IMG/VR virus record: IMGVR_UViG_2563366854_000002
Location: 1-25,932 of that record
Reading direction: 5' to 3' (one strand)
Length of the DNA stretch: 25,932 bases
Source of the DNA: a virus
Taxonomy: Duplodnaviria; Heunggongvirae; Uroviricota; Caudoviricetes
The position numbers and the translations under genes were made by a program. The notes below the pieces were generated by a model. The model was not told the DNA's origin. It searched no databases and was given only the letters and a program-made list of their open reading frames with translations. The stretch's first letter is position 1; each line of letters begins with the position of its first letter. Positions 4,233 to 22,768 of this stretch are shown one piece after another.

Positions 4233-5086
4233 GCACCATCCTGAAATGGGCGGGAAATAAAACCGCCATTATGTCCGAACTGAAAAAGCATCTTCCTGCT
4301 GGCCCGCGACTGGTTGAACCTTTCGCGGGTTCCTGTGCAGTGATGATGGAGACGGAGTACCCCAGCTATCTTGTTGCGGATATTAATCCTGATTTAATCA
4401 ACCTCTATAAAAAGGTTGCTGCTGATTGTGAATCGTTTATATCTCGCGCCAGAGTTTTATTTGAGATCGCAAACAGGGGGGGGGCTTATTACAACATAAG
4501 GCAGGAGTTTAATTACTCAACTGAAATTACTGATTTCATGAAAGCGGTATATTTCCTGTATCTCAATCGTCACGGTTACCGTGGTTTATGTCGCTATAAC
4601 AAGAGCGGGCATTTCAACATTCCCTACGGTAATTATAAAAATCCGTATTTCCCTGAAAAAGAAATTCGCGCATTTGCAGAAAAAGCCCAGCGAGCAACGT
4701 TTATCTGCGCCAGCTTTGATGAAACGCTGGCGATGTTGAAGGCGGGGGATGTGGTGTATTGCGATCCGCCGTATGACGGTACGTTTTCCGGCTATCACAC
4801 TGATGGTTTCACTGAAGATGACCAGTATCACCTGGCATCCGTTCTTGAACATCGGTCATCAGAAGGACATCCGGTCATTGTTTCTAACAGTGATACATCC
4901 CTGATCCGTTCGCTGTATCGCAATTTTACTCACCACTATATCAAGGTAAAACGCAGCATCGGTGTGGCAGCTGGCGAGGGTAAATCAGCAACAGAAATCA
5001 TTGCTGTTTCCGGGCCGCGCTGCTGGGTGGGATTTGATTATTCGCGTGGCGTGGATAGTTCTGCCGTGTACGGAGTACGTGCATGA
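4229..5086 (+). CDS. dam: DNA N6-adenine methyltransferase, Dam/D12 class (285 aa)
   Basis: Motif [10 protein letters not shown] and motif IV DPPY ([10 protein letters not shown]) seen in the translation; ATG at 4229 with GGAGG upstream; ATGA overlap with gene A at 5083-5086. Confidence 0.9.
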
Positions 5087-7497
5087 GCCATGCCGATATG
5101 AACAACTGCTGCGGCTTTAACGAGGCTGCCGCAGCGTTCTCATGGAACAGCCCGAAAAAGGCCATTAACCCTTATCTGGACCCGGCGGAAGTTGCGCCGG
5201 TTTCTGCGCTTTCAAACCTGATCGCTCTGTACGCTGCCGATAACGAACAGGAACACCTGCGCCGCGAGGCACTGAGTGATCAGGTCTGGGAGCGTTATTT
5301 CTTTAATGAATCCCGTGATCCTGTCCAGCGCGAAATGGAGCAGGATAAGCTCATTAGTCGGGCAAAGCTGGCGCATGAGCAGCAGCGTTTTAATCCAGAT
5401 ATGGTCATTCTGGCGGACGTCAATGCCCAGCCTTCCCATATCAGCAAGCCGCTGATGCAACGTATTGAATACTTCAGCAGCCTGGGCAGGCCAAAGGCTT
5501 ATTCCCGCTATTTGCGTGAGACGATTAAGCCATGTTTGGAGCGACTGGAGCATGTACGCGACAGCCAGCTATCTGCATCTTTTCGTTTTATGGCAAGCCA
5601 TGTAGGGCTGGACGGCCTGCTGATTCTGCCTGAAATGAGTCAGGATCAGGTGAAACGCCTGTCTACTCTTGTCGCTGCGCATATGAGCATGTGTCTTGAT
5701 GCCGCTTGTGGTGATTTGTACGCCACCGATGATGTTAAGCCAGAAGAAATCCGCAAGACATGGGAAAAGGTGGCAGCAGAAACCCTGCGACTGGATGTTA
5801 TCCCGCCTGCGTTTGAGCAACTTCGTCGGAAAAGAAACCGCCGTAAACCCGTGCCCTATGAACTCATTCCGGGTTCGCTGGCGCGTATGTTGTGCGCCGA
5901 TTGGTGGTACCGGAAATTATGGAAGATGCGTTGCGAATGGCGGGAAGAGCAGTTGCGTGCTGTTTGCCTGGTCAGCAAAAAAGCATCTCCCTATGTCAGC
6001 TATGAAGCCGTGATGCATAAACGTGAGCAGCGCCGTAAGTCGCTGGAGTTTTTCCGTTCTCATGAACTGGTGAACGAAGACGGCGACACGCTGGACATGG
6101 AGGATGTGGTAAACGCCAGCAGCAGCAACCCGGCGCATCGCCGCAATGAGATGATGGCCTGTGTTAAAGGTCTGGAGCTTATCGCAGAAATGCGCAGTGA
6201 CTGTGCCGTTTTCTACACTATCACCTGTCCGTCGCGTTTCCATTCCACGCTCAATAACGGCAGACCAAACCCGACCTGGACAAACGCGACGGTAAGACAA
6301 AGCAGCGATTATCTGGTCGGCATGTTTGCTGCATTTCGTAAGGCTATGCACAAAGCCGGGTTGCGCTGGTATGGCGTGCGGGTGGCTGAACCGCATCATG
6401 ACGGCACAGTTCACTGGCACCTGTTGTGTTTCATGCGCAAAAAAGACCGCCGCGCCATTACTGCATTGTTGCGTAAGTTTGCCATCCGTGAAGACCGCGA
6501 GGAGCTGGGCAATAACACGGGGCCACGCTTTAAGTCTGAGCTGATAAACCCGCGCAAAGGTACGCCAACAAGCTACATCGCGAAATACATCAGTAAGAAC
6601 ATTGACGGGCGTGGTCTGGCTGGCGAGATCAGCAAGGAAACGGGTAAATCCCTGCGTGATAACGCTGAATACGTTAATGCCTGGGCGTCTCTGCATCGTG
6701 TTCAGCAATTCCGCTTCTTTGGTATTCCGGGGCGTCAGGCTTACCGTGAACTTCGCTTGCTGGCTGGTCAGGCGGCAAGGCAACAGGGTGACAAAAAAGC
6801 AGGTGCGCCGGTACTGGATAACCCGCGTCTTGATGCCATTCTGGCTGCTGCTGATGCTGGTTGTTTTGCCACCTACATCATGAAGCAGGGCGGCGTACTG
6901 GTTCCCCGTAAATATCACCTCATCAGAACCGCTTATGAAATCAACGAAGAGCCGACCGCCTATGGCGATCACGGCATTCGTATTTATGGCATCTGGTCAC
7001 CCATTGCAGAGGGCAAGATCTGCACTCATGCAGTGAAGTGGAAAATGGTTCGTAAAGCCGTTGACGTTCAGGAGGCGGCAGCCGACCAGGGCGCTTGCGC
7101 CCCTTGGACTCGTGGCAATAACTGTCCCCTTGCTGAAAATTTGAACCAACAGGATAAAGATAAATCAGCTGATGGGGACACCAGAACGGACATTACCCGC
7201 ATGGATGACAAGGAATTGCACGATTACCTGCACAGTATGAGCAAAAAAGAGCGCCGGGAACTGGCAGCAAGGTTACGCCTAGTTAAGCTGAAACGGCGTA
7301 AAGACTACAAACAGCGAATTACAGATCATCAGCGACAGCAGCTCGTCTATGAGCTGAAGTCCAGAGGATTTGATGGCAGCGAGAAAGAGGTCGATTTACT
7401 CCTACGTGGTGGCAGTATTCCGTCAGGAGCAGGCCTGCGTATCTTCTATCGGAACCAGCGTTTGCAGGAAGATGATAAGTGGCGGAACCTGTATTAA
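5083..7497 (+). CDS. A: Phage replication initiation protein A (rolling-circle endonuclease, 804 aa)
   Basis: Translation has an HxH-type motif ([10 protein letters not shown]) and paired tyrosines ([11 protein letters not shown]) typical of P2 gpA-type initiators; position after the early operon. Confidence 0.9.
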
Positions 7498-7589
7498 TTA
7501 CGCAGGTTAACAATTCGTGCTCTTAATAATACCAGGCATATCAGGCTGATGAACGTAAAAAACGTTTTACATCAGTAATATTATTATAT

Positions 7590-7607
7590 ACTGTAAATAC
7601 AAACAGT
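7590..7607. promoter_or_regulatory. LexA (SOS) box CTGT-N8-ACAG, overlapping a possible promoter (TTTACA 7566-7571 / TACTGT 7589-7594)
   Basis: Sequence aCTGTaaatacaaACAGt read directly; exact 16-mer spacing of the LexA consensus; lies upstream of the 62-aa ORF and the dinI-like gene. Confidence 0.6.
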
Positions 7608-7648
7608 GGTTATGTATACAGTGTTGCTTTGGTGTCATAGGAGGAAAG

Positions 7649-7837
7649 ATGCAGGACTATTTTTTGGAGTCTTTGAAGCTCCAGCGCATTGATTTTTTTC
7701 TTAAGCTTGTAGCGGCTAGTGAGTGTAGTGATGAAGAGAAGGGGCTGGCTCTGCAGTGGGTTTCTGAACTGACAGATGAACTCATGGCAAAAATCAGAAC
7801 CCACGAATACAACCGCTCAATGGATGTCATCAGCTGA
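7649..7837 (+). CDS. Small protein (62 aa), possible Tum-like antirepressor N-terminal module
   Basis: Strong SD AGGAGGAAAG directly upstream of ATG; downstream of the LexA box; the Tum analogy comes from gene position only. Confidence 0.5.
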   Translation: MQDYFLESLKLQRIDFFLKLVAASECSDEEKGLALQWVSELTDELMAKIRTHEYNRSMDVIS

Positions 7838-7847
7838 GGTGGCTTTT

Positions 7848-8081
7848 ATGCGCATTGAAATAATGATCGATAAAGAGCAGAAGATTAGCCAGTCTACCCT
7901 GGACGCCCTTGAATCCGAGCTTTACCGTAATTTGCGCCCTCTGTATCCCAAAACAGCAATTCGTATCCGTAAGGGCAGCGCCAATGGCGTTGAGCTGAGC
8001 GGGTTAAAACTGGATGAAGACAAAAAGCGAGTGATGGAAATAATGCAGCAGGTCTGGGAGGACGATAGCTGGCTGCATTAA
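7848..8081 (+). CDS. DinI-family protein (77 aa)
   Basis: Translation MRIEIMIDKEQKISQSTLDALESELYRNL...MEIMQQVWEDDSWL resembles DinI (N-terminal MRIE..., C-terminal acidic W-containing tail); ATG at 7848 with GAGGTGG upstream. Confidence 0.8.
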   Translation: MRIEIMIDKEQKISQSTLDALESELYRNLRPLYPKTAIRIRKGSANGVELSGLKLDEDKKRVMEIMQQVWEDDSWLH

Positions 8082-8089
8082 GAAACATT

Positions 8090-8120
8090 GTAGGCGTCAG
8101 AACTTGATTCTGACGCCTAC
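8090..8120. terminator. Perfect 13-bp inverted repeat hairpin (gtaggcgtcagaa / ttctgacgcctac) at the boundary between phage core and cargo
   Basis: Read directly; lies between the convergent dinI-like gene (+) and the three-gene operon (-); no strong T-run. Confidence 0.4.
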
Positions 8121-8176
8121 GAGGTTGAACAACGAGTAAGGCGAGGCGTTAGGTGAAGTAACTCCTTATAAGCCAT

Positions 8177-8860
8177 CTATGATTGAAGGGTGACTTTTTT
8201 TAACGTATCAAAAACGATTTTCGTAAACTCATTCTCATTTCTAACATCAATATAAGCAAGGCCGCTATTGGTGATCTTGAGCTTACCGGAATATTCTAAT
8301 GAATTAACAGAGCAAACAAGCCTGTCAATTCTTATTTTTTTACCCTCTAATTCTTCTTTATAATACTTCCTAAGATCATTGCTGCCAATTATTTGCATTT
8401 TAGCTGTGGCGTAATCAGAAACTCTAACCCTTGAAATATCAAGTTGTGTTAAATTGATATTTACACTTGAAGATATTTCATTAAGCCAGTCTATAGGGTT
8501 TATGTCAATTTCTTCCAAACTAACACCTAAGCCAAGATTTTTTACCAAAGCCTGCGAAAAAGGCTTTAAAGTTCTGGGTGGGTTAGTAATCTGCATTACA
8601 GGAAGAGAGTCTAAAGCCACGCTAAAATTTGTGGTGCGATATTCGATTCTTTCAACGGTAGTTTCGCTTCCGTCAAAGCTTAATATTTTATCATGATAAA
8701 CAATACGCTCGACAAAGCGACCATTTGCAAAATCATGGCGTATTTTATCAAAAATGAACCCTTTCCCTTTATCCTCTGTAAAAGAATCAAGAGAAAGACG
8801 TCTAACGGCTGTTTCAAACTCAAGCCGTATGTTTAACTTAAGCCATTTAACCTTTTTCAT
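8177..8860 (-). CDS. Cargo operon gene 3: hypothetical protein (227 aa), no family recognised
   Basis: ATG at 8858-8860 with GAGGTGA upstream; overlaps gene 2 by 14 nt; AT-rich. Confidence 0.75.
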   Translation of the reverse strand: MKKVKWLKLNIRLEFETAVRRLSLDSFTEDKGKGFIFDKIRHDFANGRFVERIVYHDKILSFDGSETTVERIEYRTTNFSVALDSLPVMQITNPPRTLKPFSQALVKNLGLGVSLEEIDINPIDWLNEISSSVNINLTQLDISRVRVSDYATAKMQIIGSNDLRKYYKEELEGKKIRIDRLVCSVNSLEYSGKLKITNSGLAYIDVRNENEFTKIVFDTLKKVTLQS

Positions 8861-9926
8861 CTTCGTTCACCTCTGATCCTATTATTATATTATAGGCATT
8901 TTCAGCGGCGGACTCAATTAATTCACTAATATGTTTTTTCTCTTGTGCCGTTGCCGCGCGAATGGTTACATTGAAACCGTCTTCTTTTTGATTGTTTATA
9001 CCTTTAATTTGATAGGCAAAGTCACAGCATTTTTCTGAGTCTTTGAAAAATGCTTCGACGTTGATTCTGTCTCCAATTCCACTTGTCGGCTTTGAAGACC
9101 ATGCAATACGCCCGATATAATAACCTTTCTCATGTAGTTGAGAAAATATAGCTGAACTATTTACCCCTTCACCATTAAGGACGGCTTTCTTAACAAATCC
9201 GGTATCAATAGTTTCTTCCTTGTCTTCATCCTCACTAGCATCAGTACTGCGATTTAATTCGACTTTTGTTACGTCATCAGTCTCATAACCGCGTAGACCA
9301 TTCATTAATTCCTGAAAAAACTGACTTCGCAATGTAGGATCAGTTATTGCTAGTAATGATATTTCGAAGCGCTCGATAGGTTCGGACTTGATTTTAGATA
9401 GCTCGTTTTGCAAGCTCTCAATAACTTTTTTTGCCTCGGGGTTTTGAGGCATACGTACTTCAACTTTGTCAGCTCCAGGGCGAAGTTCTATTATAACATT
9501 CCGCTTGTCGATCTGACGTAATGCAGTTTTAGACAGGTCTATTTCTTCATATTTGTATTCTACTGTAAGCGAGCCATCTTTTTTAGCTACAATATTCAGG
9601 CTTTGACCTTTACTAGGGGAGCATGTTTTTTTTAGTGCTTCAGCAGCACTTTTTAATTCGGCCTGATTTGTTGAGGTTTGGAAGCTCACACTAGTAGTGC
9701 TTTCCCTTGGGTCATATGTTTTGACCAGTTTTTTTATGTGTTCTAATTCATTAAATCCGTGAGGAAGTTTGGATATTTCCTCGATTAGTATTTCCTTGTC
9801 GAGTTCTGGTGATAAAAACACACCTCGATTCAACAATAATTCATGCAACTTTGCAGCGGTTATCCTTTTATGATGTAATGCATCATAAATATTTTTATCA
9901 GTTGCGAAATATAGTTTTTTAGCCAT
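8847..9926 (-). CDS. Cargo operon gene 2: hypothetical protein (359 aa) with an acidic linker between two regions, no family recognised
   Basis: ATG at 9924-9926 with GGAG upstream; TAATG stop/start overlap with gene 1; AT-rich. Confidence 0.75.
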   Translation of the reverse strand: MAKKLYFATDKNIYDALHHKRITAAKLHELLLNRGVFLSPELDKEILIEEISKLPHGFNELEHIKKLVKTYDPRESTTSVSFQTSTNQAELKSAAEALKKTCSPSKGQSLNIVAKKDGSLTVEYKYEEIDLSKTALRQIDKRNVIIELRPGADKVEVRMPQNPEAKKVIESLQNELSKIKSEPIERFEISLLAITDPTLRSQFFQELMNGLRGYETDDVTKVELNRSTDASEDEDKEETIDTGFVKKAVLNGEGVNSSAIFSQLHEKGYYIGRIAWSSKPTSGIGDRINVEAFFKDSEKCCDFAYQIKGINNQKEDGFNVTIRAATAQEKKHISELIESAAENAYNIIIGSEVNEDEKG

Positions 9927-10927
9927 TATCGTTGCTCCATGCCGATTTGTTCAAGATTATATTCAACAACAATTTTGTCTGTCTTGTCGAAGTCAATTTT
10001 AAGAAAAAGTCTTTCATCCTCGCCTAAGAGCCAGTCTGTGCTGTATTTCTTTTTCGCTCTTTCAAAATGATGAATGGCATTTTCATTTGGGTGAATGTGA
10101 CAATGGCGTAATACGATTGGTTTACCTTCGGTTAATATCTGATAAGTTGATAACATATCAAAGAAGTAAACGAATTCGTCTACTGAATCCCCCGGTTGAT
10201 TGTAATAAACAACATATCCCTCAGGGTTTTTATCCCTGAGCCAACTGAAAGCCTCATGCTTTATTATAATGTATGGTGATGTTAATAATTCAATTGTTGC
10301 AGGTGTTGTCTGATTAATAGGGTGCTTTATTCTTGTTAGGGAAAGATCTGGATAATAATATGTGAACTTATCAGGTTGAGGAAGTTTGCCTGAACCAATT
10401 AACTTAGTTATGTCAGAAGATATGTTTATCAAATCTGATATTTTATAAGGGTCAAGCAAATGTAGTTTGATGTTTGGAGGGCAATTTATAGATGAGTGAT
10501 CTAATTTTTTTGTAATATTCTCATAGAAGTCTTTATCATATAAATTATCATGGTTATATAAGAATAATAACCCTCTTACGTTATAACCTAAAGAATCATC
10601 ATGAACATATTTCAATCGCCATTCTTCACTGACATTTGCACACTCGGTAGCTAAAGCAAGCGATGTTAAAGCTCCCTCGACTATTTTTTTCCCAATAGTA
10701 CCTTCTGCATAGCTTTTGAGGTCTGTGTTGAGATAGACCATTTCCTCCTCATATGGATCTATGTAGAAAAATACAACATCGCTTGGATGTGTTTTCTTGG
10801 AATGAGCCTCTTGGCAACAATCCCAATTCATGTCCGCTCTAGCGGCACGATCCCATTTGAACACTGAGAAAATATCATCAGAAATCTTACCCGCGACTCG
10901 TTGTATAGCCGAAGTCTCTCCACCCAT
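9926..10927 (-). CDS. Cargo operon gene 1: hypothetical protein (333 aa), no family recognised; has an R-x4-H spacing (RHCHIH) near the C-terminus
   Basis: ATG at 10925-10927 with AAGGAG 7 nt upstream; first gene of a three-gene minus-strand operon; AT-rich. Confidence 0.75.
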   Translation of the reverse strand: MGGETSAIQRVAGKISDDIFSVFKWDRAARADMNWDCCQEAHSKKTHPSDVVFFYIDPYEEEMVYLNTDLKSYAEGTIGKKIVEGALTSLALATECANVSEEWRLKYVHDDSLGYNVRGLLFLYNHDNLYDKDFYENITKKLDHSSINCPPNIKLHLLDPYKISDLINISSDITKLIGSGKLPQPDKFTYYYPDLSLTRIKHPINQTTPATIELLTSPYIIIKHEAFSWLRDKNPEGYVVYYNQPGDSVDEFVYFFDMLSTYQILTEGKPIVLRHCHIHPNENAIHHFERAKKKYSTDWLLGEDERLFLKIDFDKTDKIVVEYNLEQIGMEQR

Positions 10928-11077
10928 TTCAATCTCGCTCCTTTACAATTGCTGTGGCAATCTGCCTGAAAATCCATCTGACTTGATGAGTAATCTAACC
11001 ATATGGTTCGTATGCGTTTGTTGCATGACTATAGCGCATGAAAATGAATGATCGCAAAAGGATCGTTTTTGCTCAGT

Positions 11078-11104
11078 CCCGCCAGTTCTGGCGGGCTTTT
11101 ACTT
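11078..11104 (+). terminator. GC hairpin (cccgcca-gttc-tggcggg) followed by cttttactt, just left of cos
   Basis: Read directly; may be a terminator or part of the cos-flanking packaging region. Confidence 0.35.
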
Positions 11105-11145
11105 ATGTCATGCAGGTGCATGAAAACCACTACACAAAGCGGGCA

Positions 11146-11164
11146 GGCGTGGCGGGGATACGAG
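11146..11164. other. cos: Putative cos site (19-nt cohesive-end sequence GGCGTGGCGGGGATACGAG)
   Basis: Matches the P2 cohesive end as I recall it (GGCGAGGCGGGGAAAGCAC) at 15 of 19 positions, followed by GCGCGCGCTG as in the P2 left end; lies between the A-side region and portal Q, where cos is in P2-like prophages. Confidence 0.6.
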
Positions 11165-11232
11165 CGCGCGCTGTGCGTGGTTGTAAAAGGAAATTGTTTT
11201 CGGTATAACCACTTCCATTAGAAGGAGAATTT

Positions 11233-11478
11233 ATGAAAATTTTTGCAATAGTCATTACATGTATGCTGGCATCGATTGCAGGATTATGGCTTTATATGGA
11301 TCCTGGTTTTGATTCTATTGTTGCATTTTTGGCTGCAGTTAGCGCTTTAGCTGGATTACTTATCACTACAAAAAATAAATATAATTCTATGAGCCAATCA
11401 GTTGGTGATAATTCAACTGCTGTCCAGGCTAGAGGTGATATTAAAATTGATTGTATAAATACAGGTGATAAAAAATAA
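11233..11478 (+). CDS. Small membrane protein (81 aa, two predicted TM helices) with a C-terminal GDNSTAVQARGD motif
   Basis: ATG with AGGAG 7 nt upstream; hydrophobic segments IFAIVITCMLASIAGLWLY and IVAFLAAVSALAGLLITT; AT-rich. Confidence 0.7.
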   Translation: MKIFAIVITCMLASIAGLWLYMDPGFDSIVAFLAAVSALAGLLITTKNKYNSMSQSVGDNSTAVQARGDIKIDCINTGDKK

Positions 11479-11487
11479 GGAGGATAT

Positions 11488-12345
11488 ATGTTTAGTGATA
11501 AGCAAAAGCAACAAATAGGTAATAATTCGTATGCAATTCAAGCTGGAAATAATGTAAATGTTTCAGGGATGTCGTTTTCCGAGGTTAGAGAACTATTCAA
11601 CATTCTCTTCGAAAATCAGTTTCCAAAATTGAAAGATGTTGCTTATGCTGCAGCTCAAGAGAATGCAAAAGATTTTGAAGAGCGTGTCGTTTCGGATTTA
11701 ACAAAAAACGTTGATAGATTGATTATTGATAAATTTTGCGATCCGGACGTTCAGGCTACATTGACTGAGGCATTAAAGTCATCAGCCAGGAAGGGAAAGA
11801 AAGCTAATATGGATGTGCTTTCTCAGTTGTTAGTTGAACGAGTCTCCAATAACAATGACGATTTTAGAGATATAGTTTTAACGGAGGCAGTTACCGTCGT
11901 TCCCAAGTTAACACAGCAACAAATATCACTTATAACGATAGTTTTTCTTCTCAAGAATGTTGAGATCAAAGACCCTGTTAATGGTGTTCGATTGGATTTG
12001 TTGGAGCACAATTTTAGAAACTTTGAATCAATGTATACTAATGGGTTTAATTTGTCTCAAGCCCAGATATATCACATTCAATATGCAGGGGCTTGTTCAT
12101 GGAATACTTTTTTAGGGATGGATGTTGAAGACTATTTTATGAGTAAATATCCGACTGATATAAAAGATAAGAGTGCATATATTTCAAATCTTAAGTTAGT
12201 TGCCCCTCATGTGTCTGCATTTTTAGAAAAATTTTCAAAGAGCAACTATCAAGGAATTGAATTAACAAGTGTAGGGCAAGCAATTGCTCTGGCTGTTTTT
12301 TCAAGATACGTAGGAAGATTGGATTATAATATTTGGTTAAAGTAG
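11488..12345 (+). CDS. Hypothetical protein (285 aa), no family recognised; N-terminal GNNSYAIQAGNN motif resembles the C-terminus of the upstream small protein
   Basis: ATG with AAGGAGG 6 nt upstream; 9 nt downstream of the 81-aa gene; AT-rich. Confidence 0.75.
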   Translation: MFSDKQKQQIGNNSYAIQAGNNVNVSGMSFSEVRELFNILFENQFPKLKDVAYAAAQENAKDFEERVVSDLTKNVDRLIIDKFCDPDVQATLTEALKSSARKGKKANMDVLSQLLVERVSNNNDDFRDIVLTEAVTVVPKLTQQQISLITIVFLLKNVEIKDPVNGVRLDLLEHNFRNFESMYTNGFNLSQAQIYHIQYAGACSWNTFLGMDVEDYFMSKYPTDIKDKSAYISNLKLVAPHVSAFLEKFSKSNYQGIELTSVGQAIALAVFSRYVGRLDYNIWLK

Positions 12346-12370
12346 GGCATTATTTGCCCTACTTTATTAT
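12341..12370. terminator. Hairpin (agtagggc-attattt-gccctact) plus ttattat, a bidirectional terminator between the 285-aa gene and portal Q
   Basis: Read directly; overlaps the stop codon of the 285-aa gene and lies 3' of the convergent Q gene. Confidence 0.5.
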
Positions 12371-13398
12371 AATTCATATGGTTGGAAAGAAATTATTTCA
12401 TCACTCAACCATTCATTAATTTCTTTAATTCGCTTTTGCAGCGGTATCAATTCGTTACGGACAAACACCTTACTCGCCTTTTCCACATCCCCAAATCCCC
12501 CAACATTACTCGGCATAATCCCCATCATCTGCGGCGGAACGCGGTGTGCAGCCATCATGTCGTCTCGGCTCACGTTCTTAATGTTCAGAAACTCATCCTT
12601 TGCCGCTACCTCTGACAGCGGGATTATCTGAATCCCGTCCTTTTTGCCGTTGGGTGAATACATAAACAGGTTGCGGAAGTTGCCCGGTCCTTTAGCGCTT
12701 TTCATGGCCTGGCGGATGTTGTTCACGTCCTCCTGGTTCTGCGCGGCGTCGGTCATATACATGATGAACCCTGCATGACTGCCATTGATGTAGTATTTAC
12801 GCCGGAACAGCGTAGCGGACTCGTTCAGCAAGGCGGACGGAATGGCGGACAGATATTCCGGCAGGCCGTAAATTTCCTGGTTCAGGTCCGGCTCCATCAG
12901 GTGAAAGATACTGCCTTTAGTGAACTCGTAGGGCTGCGTGGTTAGACCGTATTGCACAAACCAGTAGGTGTCTAAGTCGATCCCGCGGCGGGTGTATTTC
13001 GCCAGCGATGGCTCCAGCGACAGAATGCCGCCGAGCCGGTTCGTTCGTTTCTCCAGATAAGCGTTACCAAACACCAAATAGTCCTGCACAAAGCGGCTGA
13101 ATGCCTGCTGGCTCAGTAATGGATGTGGGATAAATGTACTGGTCAGAATGTTGCGTTTGACGGCAATCGGTGAGCTGTGATGTACGGCGGCGCGATAGGT
13201 GCGAGCCAGCCCATCAAAACTGACCGGCGGTTCATACCATCTGTCCATCTGTACGCATTCCACATAGTCCAGCAGCTCGCGGCGGTCCAGTACCGGGATC
13301 GGATCGCCAAAGCTGAAAGCCTCGGCACTTACGCCTGTGTTTTTCGGTGCCGTAGCTTCTGTTGGCGTTGTGCTGGTTAAGGCTTCGGGTTCACTCAT
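12367..13398 (-). CDS. Q: Phage portal protein (P2 gpQ-like), 343 aa from ATG at 13396-13398
   Basis: Size and position next to the terminase large subunit; TGATG overlap with the P stop; the track start at 13401 is TTG. Confidence 0.9.
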   Translation of the reverse strand: MSEPEALTSTTPTEATAPKNTGVSAEAFSFGDPIPVLDRRELLDYVECVQMDRWYEPPVSFDGLARTYRAAVHHSSPIAVKRNILTSTFIPHPLLSQQAFSRFVQDYLVFGNAYLEKRTNRLGGILSLEPSLAKYTRRGIDLDTYWFVQYGLTTQPYEFTKGSIFHLMEPDLNQEIYGLPEYLSAIPSALLNESATLFRRKYYINGSHAGFIMYMTDAAQNQEDVNNIRQAMKSAKGPGNFRNLFMYSPNGKKDGIQIIPLSEVAAKDEFLNIKNVSRDDMMAAHRVPPQMMGIMPSNVGGFGDVEKASKVFVRNELIPLQKRIKEINEWLSDEIISFQPYEL

Positions 13399-15164
13399 CA
13401 AAAAATCTCCACAATATTGCTGGTATTGGCGGATTCGCCCTGCAGCGGTTCGTTAAACAGTGCGTGCATTGTTGCCCAGGCCAGATCGGCGTGGCTGGCT
13501 TCTTCGCTGCGGCTGGCTTCATAGGTCGGGCGGTTGCCGCTGGCGGTGGTTGCGCGCCGGATTGCCATAAATGACTGCGCTATGTCGGTGTGTCCGGCGT
13601 CAAACTCCAGACGGCGGTGACTGATAATGTCGTAGGCTTTGAGTACTAGGGCATTTTTAACATTGGGGTTGTAGACAAACTCCCGGACGGCAGGAAAGAA
13701 CGCTTTCACGTTCTCATAAACCCCGTGACCGACGCCTGTCGAGTCGATGCCGATATAGGTCACGTTGTACTGCTCGGTCAGTTTTTTGATTGCATCAGCC
13801 TGGGCGCGGAAGTCCATCCCGCGCCACTGGTGACGCTCAAGAATGCGAAACTTACCGCCTGGCACGGCTGGCGGTGCCACCACCACGCATCCGGCACTGT
13901 CGCCGTTCTGCGTACCTTTTGCCGGGTCATAACCGATCCACACTTCGCGCCAGCCAAACGGGCGCAGGGCCAGAGCATGAAAGTCGGTCCAGACTTCCCA
14001 ACTGTCCACCATGCACGCCTGCAGCTCGCTGAGCGGAAACACGGACGCGAGATCGTCCACAAACTCGCACATCAGCAGGTTCTGGTATTCGTCCGGGCTG
14101 TACTCCATGCGCAACTGGTCAAGGTCGAACAGGTTGCAGCCGCCGCGCACCGCATCTTCCACGGTGACTATCTGGCGGTATTGCCCGTCTGCGCACAGCA
14201 GGCCGGGGGCCAGATTGCTGTGGGACAGGTCGATGTCCACCTTATCGGCTTTGTTGCGCCCACGGTTGAACAGTGCACCGGACCAGAACGGATAAGCACT
14301 GTGTGTCAGGCTGGATGGCGTGGAAAAATAGGTTTGTCGCCATTTCTTGTGAATAGCCATACCAGAAGCCACTTTGCGCAGCTCCTGGAATTTCGGTATC
14401 CAGAAATATTCATCCAGATACAGATTGCCGTGGTAACTCTGGGCCGTGCGGGCATTGGTGCCGAGGAAATACAGTGTGGCCCCGTTGGGAAGCACCATCG
14501 GATCGCCTTTCAGCTCCACCTCCACTTCTTTGGCAAAGTCGATGATGTACTGTTTGAAAACGTGGGCCTGTGCCTTACTGGCAGAAAGGAAAATCTGGTT
14601 ACGTCTGGTTAGCAGGGCGTCAATCAGGGCTTCACGGGCAAAATAGAAGGTCGCGCCGATCTGGCGTGACTTCAGCAGGTTGCGGATGCGGTTGGTTTTT
14701 CCGGCTTCCCACCAGTGGCGCTGGTAGTTGAACATGGAGGAATGGAAGATTTCTTCTAGCTTCTCAATCTGTTCATCGGTGAAGACATTTTTTTCCGGCT
14801 GACGGCGCGGGCCTTTGTTGCGGTTGGCGACGTTAGGGTTTAAGTCGGCTTCGTTGCCGCCATTGTTAAACTTGCCGATCCGCGCGTGGCGCTCAGACTG
14901 GCGCGCCAGCAGGTCAATCTCTTTGAAATCTTTCCCTTCTTTGTGCTCCTTCATAATGAGCTGGCAGTAGCGTGCGGCGGTGGTGAGCTGCATCTGATCC
15001 AGCGGCCCATAGTCACCCCACTTGTCGCGTTTTTTCCAGCTGTGAACGGTTGCAACTTTCTCGCCCAGCATTTCAGCAATGCGGGCTACGCGGTATCCCT
15101 GAAAGTACAGCAGCATGGCCTGCCGACGGGGATCGAGATCTGCGGGTGTCAGTGTGGTGTTCAT
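13398..15164 (-). CDS. P: Terminase large (ATPase) subunit, P2 gpP-like (588 aa)
   Basis: Size, position between portal and scaffold genes, and P2 synteny. Confidence 0.9.
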   Translation of the reverse strand: MNTTLTPADLDPRRQAMLLYFQGYRVARIAEMLGEKVATVHSWKKRDKWGDYGPLDQMQLTTAARYCQLIMKEHKEGKDFKEIDLLARQSERHARIGKFNNGGNEADLNPNVANRNKGPRRQPEKNVFTDEQIEKLEEIFHSSMFNYQRHWWEAGKTNRIRNLLKSRQIGATFYFAREALIDALLTRRNQIFLSASKAQAHVFKQYIIDFAKEVEVELKGDPMVLPNGATLYFLGTNARTAQSYHGNLYLDEYFWIPKFQELRKVASGMAIHKKWRQTYFSTPSSLTHSAYPFWSGALFNRGRNKADKVDIDLSHSNLAPGLLCADGQYRQIVTVEDAVRGGCNLFDLDQLRMEYSPDEYQNLLMCEFVDDLASVFPLSELQACMVDSWEVWTDFHALALRPFGWREVWIGYDPAKGTQNGDSAGCVVVAPPAVPGGKFRILERHQWRGMDFRAQADAIKKLTEQYNVTYIGIDSTGVGHGVYENVKAFFPAVREFVYNPNVKNALVLKAYDIISHRRLEFDAGHTDIAQSFMAIRRATTASGNRPTYEASRSEEASHADLAWATMHALFNEPLQGESANTSNIVEIF

Positions 15165-20299: not shown

Positions 20300-20738
20300 A
20301 CTGCAGAAGGTGGACGACTGGCTTAGTGCCTTACTGGCGAATCTGGAACCAGTCGCAAGAAGCCGCATGATGCGCCAGCTGGCGCAGGAACTGCGCCGGA
20401 CACAGCAGCAGAATATCAGGATGCAGCGCAATCCAGATGGCAGCAGTTATGAACCGCGCAAGGTCACGGCGCGCAGTAAAAAAGGCCGCATCAAACGTCA
20501 GATGTTTGCAAAGCTGCGCACCACCAAATACCTGAAAACTGCCGCCAGCGCCGATTCTGCCAGCGTGCAGTTTGAAGGTAAGGTGCAGCGCATTGCCCGC
20601 GTTCACCATTATGGCCTGCGCGATCGCGTCAGCCGCAAAGGACCGGAAGTGCGTTACGCAGAGCGTCGTTTGTTGGGTCTTAATGGTGAGTCTTACGTTC
20701 TAACTCTTGATATATTGAATAGATTCCTTCTGTCTTGA
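20292..20738 (+). CDS. S: Tail completion protein S (P2 gpS-like, 148 aa) with a replaced C-terminal ~18 aa encoded by AT-rich inserted DNA
   Basis: Conserved gpS body (..IARVHHYGLRDRVSRKGPEVRYAERRLLGL) then an unrelated tail NGESYVLTLDILNRFLLS where the GC content drops. Confidence 0.8.
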   Translation: MAELQKVDDWLSALLANLEPVARSRMMRQLAQELRRTQQQNIRMQRNPDGSSYEPRKVTARSKKGRIKRQMFAKLRTTKYLKTAASADSASVQFEGKVQRIARVHHYGLRDRVSRKGPEVRYAERRLLGLNGESYVLTLDILNRFLLS

Positions 20739-21486
20739 ATTCACCATATGCCCAATGAATTGCATTTTTTTGTTCAGTCAGAATATATTTCCTAACTTTT
20801 TTAGAATAGTGAATGGTCAGTATAAAACCCAAAGAAATCCATAATAGAATAAATATGGTTGTTGGGGCAAAGGAATAGATAAAGAATTTGTCTTTAACGA
20901 AATTCTTGACTTCTTCATCAATGTAAGCATTCCCTTCATCAGTGGTTAGTAGTTTACAAAGAATTTCTTTATGTTCGATAGTTAATGATTTGTACTTCTC
21001 TGTACTGGCAGAGGATGACTCTTCGCAATCATCCTTTGATATTTCCCAATCAGGAGTGGTTAATATTGTAGCTGCAGTCGCCAGTTTTTTTGACATATAA
21101 AATGATTCACCGGATTTTATCCAATAAAGCAATGTGCTATTTGGTGGGGTTCTAATGGCTTGGATGAAAACTGGACCAAAAATATAAATTGCACACAAAA
21201 AAAGAAGTGAAAAGAGAACCGTGATTGATTTTTCAGCCCATGTGATAGTAGGCAGCCTTTTTAATGATATTCGTATAAGAAAAAAATTCAATATAAACGC
21301 AGGTATTCCTGATTTTTTCAAAATTACATCATGAGATTTTCTATATTTGAATAGTGCTCTTATAACTATCGTCACCAAAGTTATAACAGCTCCAATAATG
21401 GAAATCCATGCGGCAAGTGCCGCTGCCGGGGTGTTTAAAAATTCAGCATTAAATATATTAGAACTTATTGGATTCATAACACTCAT
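20680..21486 (-). CDS. Polytopic membrane protein (268 aa), unknown function, in an AT-rich insert between S and V
   Basis: ATG at 21484-21486 with AGGTGGA upstream; several hydrophobic helices; 19 G+C in the 60 nt of line 21181; opposite strand to the flanking late genes. Confidence 0.65.
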   Translation of the reverse strand: MSVMNPISSNIFNAEFLNTPAAALAAWISIIGAVITLVTIVIRALFKYRKSHDVILKKSGIPAFILNFFLIRISLKRLPTITWAEKSITVLFSLLFLCAIYIFGPVFIQAIRTPPNSTLLYWIKSGESFYMSKKLATAATILTTPDWEISKDDCEESSSASTEKYKSLTIEHKEILCKLLTTDEGNAYIDEEVKNFVKDKFFIYSFAPTTIFILLWISLGFILTIHYSKKVRKYILTEQKNAIHWAYGEFKTEGIYSIYQELERKTHH

Positions 21487-21589
21487 TTATCCACCTATTG
21501 GTTGTTTTTTATCCTTTTATCAATTTGTACCATCGATACCACAATTTGCAAGAAGTTATAAACAAGTTTTCAGCTGTCATCATATATCT

Positions 21590-22768
21590 ATGAACGCACA
21601 ACTAACCGAAATCATGCGCCTTATCACCAATCTGATCCGCATAGGTGTAGTCACCGAAGTGGACCGGGAAAACTGGCTTTGTCGGGTGAAAACGGGCGAC
21701 CTTGAAACCAACTGGATTAACTGGCTGACGCTGCGCGCGGGTATCACCACTGTGCTGGACAACCGCCTGATGGGGCTTACGCTGACGGATAACCGGGGCT
21801 TTGAAGCGGACCAGCTTGATCTGGAGCTGGACGACGCTGACGGAAAAATCGTGCTGCCGCGCCGTGGTGCGGTCATTACGCTGGCGCTGGGCTGGAAGGG
21901 GCAGCCGCTTTTCCCGAAAGGGGCATTCACGGTGGACGAGATTGAACACACTGGCGCACCGGACCGCCTGACTATCCGGGCGCGAAGCGCTGATTTTCGG
22001 GAAACGCTGAATACCCGTCGTGAAAAATCGTGGCACAAGACCACGGTCGGGGAAGTGGTGAAGGAAATAGCTGCGCGTCACAAACTGAAGATGGCACTGG
22101 GTAAAGACCTGTCGGATAAACCCGTGGAGCATATAGACCAGACTAATGAGAGTGACGGCAGTTTTTTGATGCGGCTGGCGCGCCAGTACGGTGCCATTGC
22201 ATCGGTGAAAAATGGCAATCTGTTATTCATCCGGCAGGGACAGGGCAAAAGCGCCAGCGGTAAACCACTGCCGGTGATCACTATCATACGTAAGGACGGC
22301 GACAGTCACCGCTTTACCCTGGCAGATCGCGGAGCTTACACGGGGGTAATTGCCAGCTGGTTGCATACCCGCGAACCCGCGAAGAAAGAAAGCACTACGG
22401 TGAAGCGTAAGCGCAGGACTAAGAAGCAGAAGAAAGAGCCGGAAGCGAAGCAGGGCGATTACCTGGTGGGGACGGATGAAAACGTGCTGGTACTTAATCG
22501 CACTTATGCCAACCGGAGCAACGCCGAACGAGCGGCAAAAATGCAGTGGGAACGCCTGCAACGCGGCGTTGCGTCATTCTCGCTACAACTGGCGGAAGGG
22601 CGGGCAGATCTCTACACGGAAATGCCTGTGAAGGTCAGTGGTTTTAAACAGCCGATAGATGATGCGGAATGGACTATTACCACCCTGACGCATACTGTCA
22701 GCCCGGATAACGGTTTTACGACCAGTCTGGAGCTTGAAGTGAAGATTGATGATTTCGAAATGGAATGA
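21590..22768 (+). CDS. Chimeric in-frame ORF: N-terminal ~48 aa of baseplate spike V fused to late control/tail protein D (392 aa)
   Basis: The first ~48 aa (MNAQLTEIMRLITNLIRIGVVTEVDRENWLCRVKTGDLETNWINWLTLRAG) match the gpV N-terminus pattern; the rest (LTLTDNRGFEADQLDLELDD...FTTSLELEVKIDDFEME) matches gpD; no W, J, I, H, G, F, E, T or U genes are present. Confidence 0.8.
   Translation: MNAQLTEIMRLITNLIRIGVVTEVDRENWLCRVKTGDLETNWINWLTLRAGITTVLDNRLMGLTLTDNRGFEADQLDLELDDADGKIVLPRRGAVITLALGWKGQPLFPKGAFTVDEIEHTGAPDRLTIRARSADFRETLNTRREKSWHKTTVGEVVKEIAARHKLKMALGKDLSDKPVEHIDQTNESDGSFLMRLARQYGAIASVKNGNLLFIRQGQGKSASGKPLPVITIIRKDGDSHRFTLADRGAYTGVIASWLHTREPAKKESTTVKRKRRTKKQKKEPEAKQGDYLVGTDENVLVLNRTYANRSNAERAAKMQWERLQRGVASFSLQLAEGRADLYTEMPVKVSGFKQPIDDAEWTITTLTHTVSPDNGFTTSLELEVKIDDFEME

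Follow-up and report, generated by a model that had tools for sequence, protein, structure and literature searches.

We analysed a stretch of 25,932 nucleotides (nt) from a virus of the Caudoviricetes (IMG/VR record IMGVR_UViG_2563366854_000002), referred to as the window throughout, with a focus on the accessory DNA around the cohesive-end site (cos), in the interval from replication gene A to portal gene Q. The window belongs to a P2/186/Fels-2-like prophage, which is inserted beside ybjL in Escherichia coli HSP425. Its first 25 kb are 100% identical to the HSP425 chromosome, and its best phage matches are Peduoviridae. As the first-pass annotation of this DNA had described, three minus-strand open reading frames (ORFs) lie on the A side, behind a DinI/Tum-like gene that ends at 8081, and two plus-strand ORFs lie on the Q side. 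It had also called this cargo AT-rich on both sides of cos. Indeed, the G+C content is 36.5% for 8153-11021 and 34.5% for 11172-12366, compared with 52-56% for the backbone (52.8% for A, 52.7% for the conserved block around cos, 51.7% for Q, and 56.1% for terminase gene P).

Anatomy of the interval between A and Q

The alignment with P2, 186 and P2-like prophages that had been proposed as a check was carried out, and it placed cos at 11146-11164 and the breakpoints of conserved sequence at 8152/8153, 11022 and 11171. The 19-nt G+C-rich sequence at 11146-11164 (GGCGTGGCGGGGATACGAG) corresponds column for column to the sequences annotated as cohesive ends in P2 (GGCGAGGCGGGGAAAGCAC) and in 186 (GGCGTGGCGGGGAAAGCAT), with 14/19 positions identical to 186 and 12/19 to P2; terminase cleavage at this site, to 19-nt 5' overhangs, is predicted. 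Conservation extends into the flanks, to GTGCATGAAAACC..AAAGCGGGC on the left side and to GCGCGC on the right. Together with GCATG repeats and a hairpin, the cohesive-end sequence forms a conserved cos block of 150 base pairs (bp; 11022-11171). This block is the sole part of 8153-12366 that the window shares with Fels-2 and with Klebsiella phages. A search of 5426 complete E. coli genomes detected it in 1252, with unchanged edges and whatever the cargo.

These observations bear on the idea that the whole AT-rich stretch is one island from a single acquisition, in which the cos-like sequence would be incidental or non-functional. The similarly low G+C content of both parts fits such an origin, as does the presence of both window cargos together in 5 E. 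coli genomes. However, the intervening 150 bp have the G+C content of the backbone, occur regardless of cargo and can be aligned with the cos annotated in P2 and in 186, and each half of the stretch is found without the other. We consider a single island very improbable.

Two further elements were noted in the cos block. Between 11022 and 11130 there are four GCATG motifs and one variant, and a conserved T-tailed hairpin lies at 11078-11095 (CCCGCCAG-TTCT-CTGGCGGG-CTTTT). These motifs and the hairpin are possibly binding sites for terminase or a host factor, or a terminator that would shield cos from A-side transcription.

On the A side, a perfect 13-bp hairpin (8090-8120; stem 8090-8102/8108-8120, 5-nt loop) follows the DinI/Tum-like gene. 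Almost every related locus has such a hairpin behind dinI, loci with an empty A-side slot included. Its stem shows 58 distinct sequences across loci, with complementarity kept; because the sequence varies so widely and yet remains complementary, the hairpin appears to be a selected structure. It is followed by a conserved leader, GGTTGAACAACGAG-N4-GCGAGGCGTTAG (8121-8152, plus strand). In empty A-side slots, the dinI stop codon is followed by the hairpin, by GGTTGAACAACGAG and a short spacer that varies (4 nt in the window), and by GCGAGGCGTTAG, 8 nt and the cos block. The hairpin and 8121-8152 are therefore backbone, and A-side cargo starts at 8152/8153, right after GTTAG. Its right junction lies directly before TGCATG at 11022.

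The leader motif GAGGCGTTAG provides a GAGG ribosome-binding site for a plus-strand ORF, usually of about 85 residues, in 9 of 25 A-side cargo types. Members of this ORF family (MGSKD... in the one translated locus, L132) start 2-3 nt past the GTTAG leader downstream of dinI; they were seen in loci L022, L020, L076, L009, L029, L063, L084 and L132 and account for most A-side slots of about 344 bp. The junction motif GCGAGGCG (8141-8148) was considered as a pseudo-cos, as it equals 8 nt of the P2 cohesive end (GGCGAGGCGGGG). This candidate was rejected, since only GAGGCGTTAG is conserved across loci; the likeness to the P2 cos is probably due to chance.

On the Q side, cargo starts approximately 7-25 nt past the cohesive end and runs up to the Q stop codon, so that it comes within about 7 nt of cos, compared with about 125 nt on the A side. 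In the window it ends in a perfect 12-bp hairpin (12338-12366; stem 12338-12349/12355-12366), which abuts the Q stop codon and was called as a terminator on the plus strand; the minus strand has no T-run. Empty Q-side slots keep a spacer with a tQ-like terminator, whereas in the window this spacer is gone and the hairpin stands in its place. Every Q-side cargo type has a terminal hairpin of its own, which differs from the others. Of the Q-side types, 78% have a structure at least as strong as -14 kcal/mol in their last 60 nt, compared with 7% of internal windows. In the region as a whole, terminator-like sites are likewise more numerous than in shuffled sequences (12 vs 3.7 ± 1.9).

The first-pass annotation had regarded the stretch from 8082 as a cargo island bracketed by two hairpins that mark the conserved boundaries of a hotspot. 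Both hairpins exist, and the left one is indeed a conserved boundary marker. However, it is a putative backbone terminator, and the cargo starts at 8153 rather than 8082. The right hairpin has a perfect stem, but lies at 12338-12366 rather than 12341-12370 and is borne by the cargo; it has no conserved sequence, as each Q-side cargo type brings its own.

Beyond the right hairpin lies the portal gene Q (12367-13401, minus strand; Pfam Phage_portal), the backbone gene that bounds the Q-side slot. Identity profiles indicate that its 3' end (approximately 180-200 nt, window 12367-12550) travels with the Q-side cassette. The last 3-14 Q codons differ between phages with different cargo, and the C-terminus of the portal therefore appears tolerant to replacement.

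Independent assortment and proposed exchange of the two cassettes

The variability of the two positions was described from at least 120 contigs of IMG/VR in which the 36-nt cos core is exactly the same, plus three reference loci from phages and the window. The counts below hold among the loci listed. The A-side interval, from the dinI stop codon to the cos block, ranged from 78 to 3317 bp and was empty (78-80 bp) in 29 of 88 loci. The Q-side interval, from cos to the Q stop codon, ranged from 146 to 3524 bp; 10 of 91 loci were empty (146-178 bp), and one further slot was short (264 bp). These Q-side lengths are approximate, since the Q stop coordinates of the other loci were extrapolated from tblastn matches and are often a few codons off. 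Clustering gave 31 A-side and 63 Q-side content types among 123 loci.

The 65 loci with both ends present displayed 58 different combinations of A-side and Q-side types. There were 48 pairs of loci whose A-side type is non-empty and the same; only 3 of these had the Q-side type in common as well. Reciprocal cases were found for both window cassettes. Klebsiella phage ST437-OXA245phi4.1 has the same A-side operon, which belongs to the 3HP type (see below), next to a different Q-side gene. Conversely, the Q-side pair of E. coli PEC422, which is 97.4% identical, stands next to unrelated A-side genes, and Salmonella prophages with the Q-side pair have no 3HP. The notion of a modular hotspot with two independently exchangeable slots was thus borne out.

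Identity profiles revealed how far the shared tracts extend. Compared with a Salmonella prophage, the window is 94-100% identical from approximately 11100 to approximately 12550, which includes cos and about 180 nt of Q; outside this tract, it drops to 75-82% on the left side and to about 80-90% deeper in Q. Compared with the Klebsiella phage, identity is 90-100% from approximately 8000 to approximately 11050 and then decays through the cos block; A and dinI are 70-80% identical, and there is no homology past 11190. The 150-bp cos block contains an end of both high-identity tracts and would therefore be the shared middle homology arm. E. coli H3 is 100% identical to the window over 7400-13000 and divergent elsewhere in the prophage.

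Taken together, we favour, with a probability of roughly 0.85, the reading that this locus is the known hotspot of P2/186/Fels-2-like phages between A and Q, that it is bipartite, with the cos block parting two cassette positions, and that cassettes are exchanged by flank homology. The A-side position (8153-11021) would start past the terminator and leader of the dinI/tum-like gene and is taken up here by the minus-strand 3HP operon; the Q-side position (11172-12366) would end at the Q stop codon and hold a two-gene cassette that has its own putative terminator and points away from cos. Related phages would swap cassettes through homologous recombination in the conserved flanks, namely in the dinI 3' end with its terminator, in the cos block and in the Q 3' end. 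Because the cos block lies between both positions, either slot could be replaced alone. Tracts that overrun the cargo into its flanks fit homologous crossovers at these three sites.

An alternative is that the cos ends themselves drive the exchange: terminase-cut or freshly injected ends would serve as recombination substrates, and one end-initiated event plus one homologous crossover would suffice per slot. Both slots abut cos, with Q-side cargo only about 7-25 nt from the cohesive end, the Q-side high-identity tract begins at or near cos (approximately 11100-11150), and the strict polarity of Q-side cargo away from cos hints at a directional constraint. The idea is also raised as a speculation in the part of PMC9122126 that was accessible. 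On the other hand, the 3HP tract continues into the left portion of the cos block, where its identity falls off step by step (from 98% to 92% to 85%) with no stop at the cut site, and the tracts reach approximately 80-200 nt into dinI and Q, as for ordinary homologous crossovers. We regard end-driven exchange as unlikely, although it is compatible with flank homology and sequence alone cannot separate the two.

The orientation of the cargo differs between the positions. On the Q side, 53 of 58 types have all genes on the plus strand, i.e. away from cos and convergent with Q, and none has all genes on the minus strand. On the A side, 16 types are all plus, 9 are all minus and 5 are mixed. It had been claimed that both cargo units are transcribed away from cos; this is true of the genes in the window, but as a rule it holds for the Q side only, as A-side cargo occurs in either orientation.

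Under the bipartite reading, each cassette would have a promoter of its own, located at the edge nearest to cos. A consensus scan yielded a candidate σ70 promoter for the 3HP operon at 11028-11057 (minus strand; -35 TTGCGA, 18 nt, -10 TATAGT), which overlaps the left edge of the cos block. The substitutions that create its hexamers are confined to 3HP-bearing loci, and it appears to travel with the cassette for this reason. For the Q-side cassette, reading of the sequence and our own scoring pointed to a candidate at 11181-11209 (plus strand; TTGTAA, 17 nt, TATAAC). This candidate is weak, as the final T of the -10 hexamer is missing, and it was not reported by the promoter scan. We infer that the promoters of both cassettes are cassette-specific. 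A shared divergent promoter region had been placed at 10928-11232; the candidates do lie there, but they are two separate ones with about 150 nt between them, and each is found on that side of the cos core where its cassette lies. The layout on the 3HP side is the same as in P2, where transcription of old-tin begins at a distance of approximately 150 nt from cosR and proceeds away from cos. We also considered one common promoter within the cos block that reads across cos; neither the scan nor inspection found one on the plus strand. An Rfam scan of 7600-12800 at E≤1 returned just two chance-level matches to eukaryotic families.

Several points weigh against the bipartite, homology-driven reading. 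The survey is biased: it covers one cos clade and was not dereplicated. Some linkage between the positions remains, as 8 locus pairs share both types when 2.8 are expected (P approximately 0.015); this would be expected from clonal relatedness. Promoter matches in the region are at expectation (18 vs 15.5 ± 4 in shuffles), and promoter-like matches at the start of Q-side cargo are only modestly enriched (24% vs 9%). PADLOC found no match for the Q-side cassette, and a tblastn and protein-level search with its 285-residue protein in the phage-record collection returned nothing. The window prophage has lost tail genes, so that packaging of this copy is hypothetical and would need a helper. Finally, homologous recombination covers exchange among relatives, but not the first entry of new cargo into the slots.

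The two window cargos

The A-side operon consists of three co-oriented, overlapping or abutting ORFs on the minus strand, each of which was matched over its whole length by a PADLOC model: Hp1 (9926-10927, 333 residues; PDLC03004, 792.4 bits), Hp2 (8847-9926, 359 residues; PDLC03005, 820.3 bits) and Hp3 (8177-8860, 227 residues; PDLC03006, 519.6 bits). By these matches, the operon is the published 3HP (Rst_3HP) anti-phage system: genes, gene order and the P2-like hotspot are the same, and no difference was detected at the sequence level. Activity of the window copy is predicted. According to the accessible part of PMC9122126, 3HP was cloned from this P2 hotspot as three genes without a clear predicted domain, and it protects against P1.

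Remote homology connects 3HP with GAPS4. The Pfam family PF26115 (PDDEXK_GAPS4) is precomputed on all listed homologues of Hp1, including the 100%-identical cluster, which makes Hp1 a predicted PD-(D/E)xK nuclease of the GAPS4 type; residues H47, P48, D50, D69, K71 and S72 are invariant in 23 homologues. Hp2 is distantly GapS4b-like, with a weak but near full-length match to the NCBIfam model GapS4b (NF047934; E=2.2e-5, 23.5 bits vs a cut-off of 300). PF26110 (GAPS4b_N) is found on the second gene of the homologous Vibrio operon, and none is recorded for the Delftia operon. A third gene (Hp3, approximately 206-227 residues) is conserved downstream in Escherichia, Vibrio and Delftia. NCBIfam at E≤10 gave nothing for Hp1 or Hp3, a sequence search of the PDB with Hp1 gave no match, and our local copy of Pfam gave no significant match for any of the five cargo proteins.

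GAPS4 consists of the PD-(D/E)xK nuclease GAPS4a and of GAPS4b, and acts as a DNase that is non-selective and set off by DNA breaks (bioRxiv 10.1101/2025.09.07.674715). Like GAPS4, 3HP has the predicted nuclease gene first and the putative scaffold gene second; unlike GAPS4, it has the conserved Hp3, and the Hp1 motif is HPSD...DLK and not HGxD...SxK. Because GAPS4 has a two-gene (or fused) architecture and the third gene is conserved here, 3HP was not filed as GAPS4. Rather, it may be a three-component relative of GAPS4 that works as a nuclease, most likely as a PD-(D/E)xK DNase complex.

The Q-side cassette encodes two proteins on the plus strand. The first (11233-11478, 81 residues; PHROG 27656) is a small protein with two predicted transmembrane (TM) helices and a C-terminal NSxxxQAxGD motif. 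The second (11488-12345, 285 residues) belongs to the LPO_1073/Vpar_1526 family (NF045477/PF28206): residues 27-284 match model positions 1-257 of NF045477 with 243.4 bits (cut-off 45), and PF28206 is present on all Vpar_1526 homologues. The pair is rare in E. coli (6 of 5426 genomes). P2-like prophages of Salmonella have it at 98% identity in the same slot, and in Klebsiella variicola the Q-side slot holds a 39%-identical version. Equivalent small ORFs also precede the Vpar_1526 homologues of Klebsiella, Vibrio and Burkholderia. Those of Vibrio and Burkholderia are predicted to encode membrane proteins, and the one in Burkholderia is absent from the annotation.

The tail of the small 2-TM protein (window 11400-11460) and the N-terminus of the Vpar_1526 protein (11510-11570) have a motif in common, xIQAGxxV(N). 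This sharing holds in Escherichia, Klebsiella, Vibrio and Burkholderia (loci including L132, L134 and L137) and suggests that the two proteins pair through the motif. An AlphaFold2 model of the Vpar_1526 protein (predicted local distance difference test score 81) is all-alpha with weak winged-helix similarity. Foldseek found no match for this model in the PDB at E≤0.001, and a sequence search of the PDB with the Vpar_1526 profile gave no match either. A literature search for LPO_1073/Vpar_1526 found no description of function; the term occurred in a single paper, on the outer-membrane proteome of Veillonella parvula.

Guessed from this context, the two Q-side genes probably form a further module for defence or exclusion. 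A reading in which it is not anti-phage, but another kind of moron riding in the hotspot, for example a membrane, lysogenic-conversion or regulatory module, comes close to an even chance. It agrees with the missing PADLOC match and functional literature, with the location of the Burkholderia homologue between housekeeping genes, and with the partition systems and cytolethal distending toxin that the hotspot is known to carry, as stated in the part of PMC9122126 available to us. Against it, the pair sits in a defence-rich slot of E. coli, Salmonella and Klebsiella P2-like prophages, the Vibrio homologue is surrounded by an integrase, a NERD-domain gene, an insertion sequence (IS) element and a group II intron reverse transcriptase, and a 2-TM protein with a motif-sharing soluble partner would resemble membrane-effector abortive-infection pairs. 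A bolder, combined proposal can be offered only tentatively, at clearly less than even odds: the 2-TM and Vpar_1526 proteins would form a new, widespread two-gene anti-phage system of the abortive-infection type that docks via xIQAGxxV, and the P2 hotspot would formally be two hotspots with different rules, the Q-side cargo always pointing away from cos and bringing its own terminator in place of tQ.

The flanking backbone and relation to known loci

The genes around the hotspot follow the order of the prophage backbone. An integrase gene (1-1209), the CI repressor gene, a Dam methylase gene, replication gene A (5083-7497; Pfam Phage_GPA) and the DinI/Tum-like gene lie to the left. To the right, Q is followed by terminase gene P and then by head, lysis and tail-completion genes. 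The DinI/Tum-like gene is the last backbone gene on the A side (7848-8081, plus strand; Pfam DinI, 84.5 bits). Its coordinates were taken from the RefSeq version on identical DNA, which is 234 nt long; the mechanical ORF call is 7776-8081.

Upstream of it, a LexA-box-like palindrome (TACTGT-N8-ACAGTG; 7589-7608, plus strand) was recognised as a candidate from the sequence and by comparison with phage 186, and a 62-residue ORF (7649-7837) lies between this palindrome and the dinI-like gene. The site may be the positional analogue of the p95/LexA site of 186, and the left hairpin may be the terminator of a LexA-controlled dinI/tum-like operon, in the position of t95a of 186. The terminator scan called this hairpin on the minus strand (8120-8090), and the plus strand has no T-run. 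Because a T-rich tail follows on the minus strand, the hairpin could also end the 3HP operon, and we infer that both this hairpin and the one at 12338-12366 may be used as terminators in both directions. Given the LexA-box-like site upstream, plus-strand A-side cargo of other phages would be SOS-inducible via read-through of the hairpin.

The SOS operon of 186 driven by p95 (LexA box, tum, t95a, orf97, t95b, cos) resembles the window in its LexA-box-like site, DinI/Tum-like gene, hairpin and accessory position before cos. However, the hairpin and leader sequences of the window are not homologous to those of 186, and the window cargo lies on the opposite strand with its own candidate promoter.

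Outside the hotspot, several features of the prophage were noted. An ORF at 21347-22768 (plus strand) consists of an N-terminal fragment of baseplate protein V (residues ~80-136) fused to tail protein D (residues 132-473), with the breakpoint near 21743. By this fusion, tail genes V to U are deleted and the prophage is therefore defective; these genes are retained in the related prophages of strains E47 and H3. A DUF6216 gene (20680-21486, minus strand, 268 residues, ~33% G+C) lies between tail-completion gene S and V. It resembles cargo in another accessory position of P2-like phages, and PADLOC and PHROG searches gave no match for it. The AT-rich stretch at 1200-2000 (33-38% G+C) contains the CI repressor gene and the integrase-proximal spacer, and is the kind of variable immunity region that P2-like phages typically have.

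Two records of 55 kb with a plasmid annotation (NZ_CP148585.1 and NZ_CP148400.1) are 100% identical to window 1-21743, from the integrase gene to the V fragment; candidate explanations are phage-plasmids, excised circles or assembly artefacts. In E. coli NZ_LT883142.1 (2957-5105), an ISKpn26 insertion is associated with several losses: Hp1 is gone entirely and Hp2 in part, the cos block is missing, and of the Q-side cassette only the last 105 bp beside Q remain. This copy is a decayed, cos-less version of the same prophage.

The locus is already known, in kind and in instance. The interval between gpA and gpQ adjacent to cos is a published defence hotspot of P2-like phages, as stated in the accessible parts of PMC9122126, PMC13586616 and bioRxiv 10.1101/2024.10.15.618418, and the exact protein set of this locus is contained in the supplement of PMC9122126 as far as that was available (WP_001154434, WP_000687980, WP_000490525, WP_000508501, WP_001085272, WP_000756244 and WP_001217570). 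The window shares with this hotspot (old/tin, 'TO') the position between A and Q by cos, the hypervariable AT-rich content and the presence of validated defence systems. In the parts of these sources that were accessible, the hotspot is treated as one interval and its division by cos is unmentioned, whereas the window has two positions with different orientation rules. In P2 and 186, only the A-side position is filled, and the cos-to-Q interval of approximately 170-180 nt contains just the tQ/tW terminator. The psu-int hotspot of P4-like satellites likewise has variable defence cargo in either orientation beside the shared P2/P4 cos core. It differs in being single-sided and in lying in a satellite, and exchange of cargo between P2 and P4 is reported to be almost absent.

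The first-pass annotation correctly recognised a published kind of locus from the raw sequence, and modest detail is added here: the bipartite description, the polarity and terminator-replacement rule of the Q side, the link between 3HP and GAPS4, and a flagged conserved cassette on the Q side. For 3HP, which was published as 'three hypothetical proteins', the relation to GAPS4 provides a lead on the mechanism, namely a DNase. The Q-side pair is a conserved, uncharacterised two-gene candidate for phage-challenge assays. Since the junction positions can be stated to the nucleotide, they offer a basis for testing how cassettes are swapped in P2-like phages, a mechanism that the literature, in the parts accessible to us, calls unresolved.

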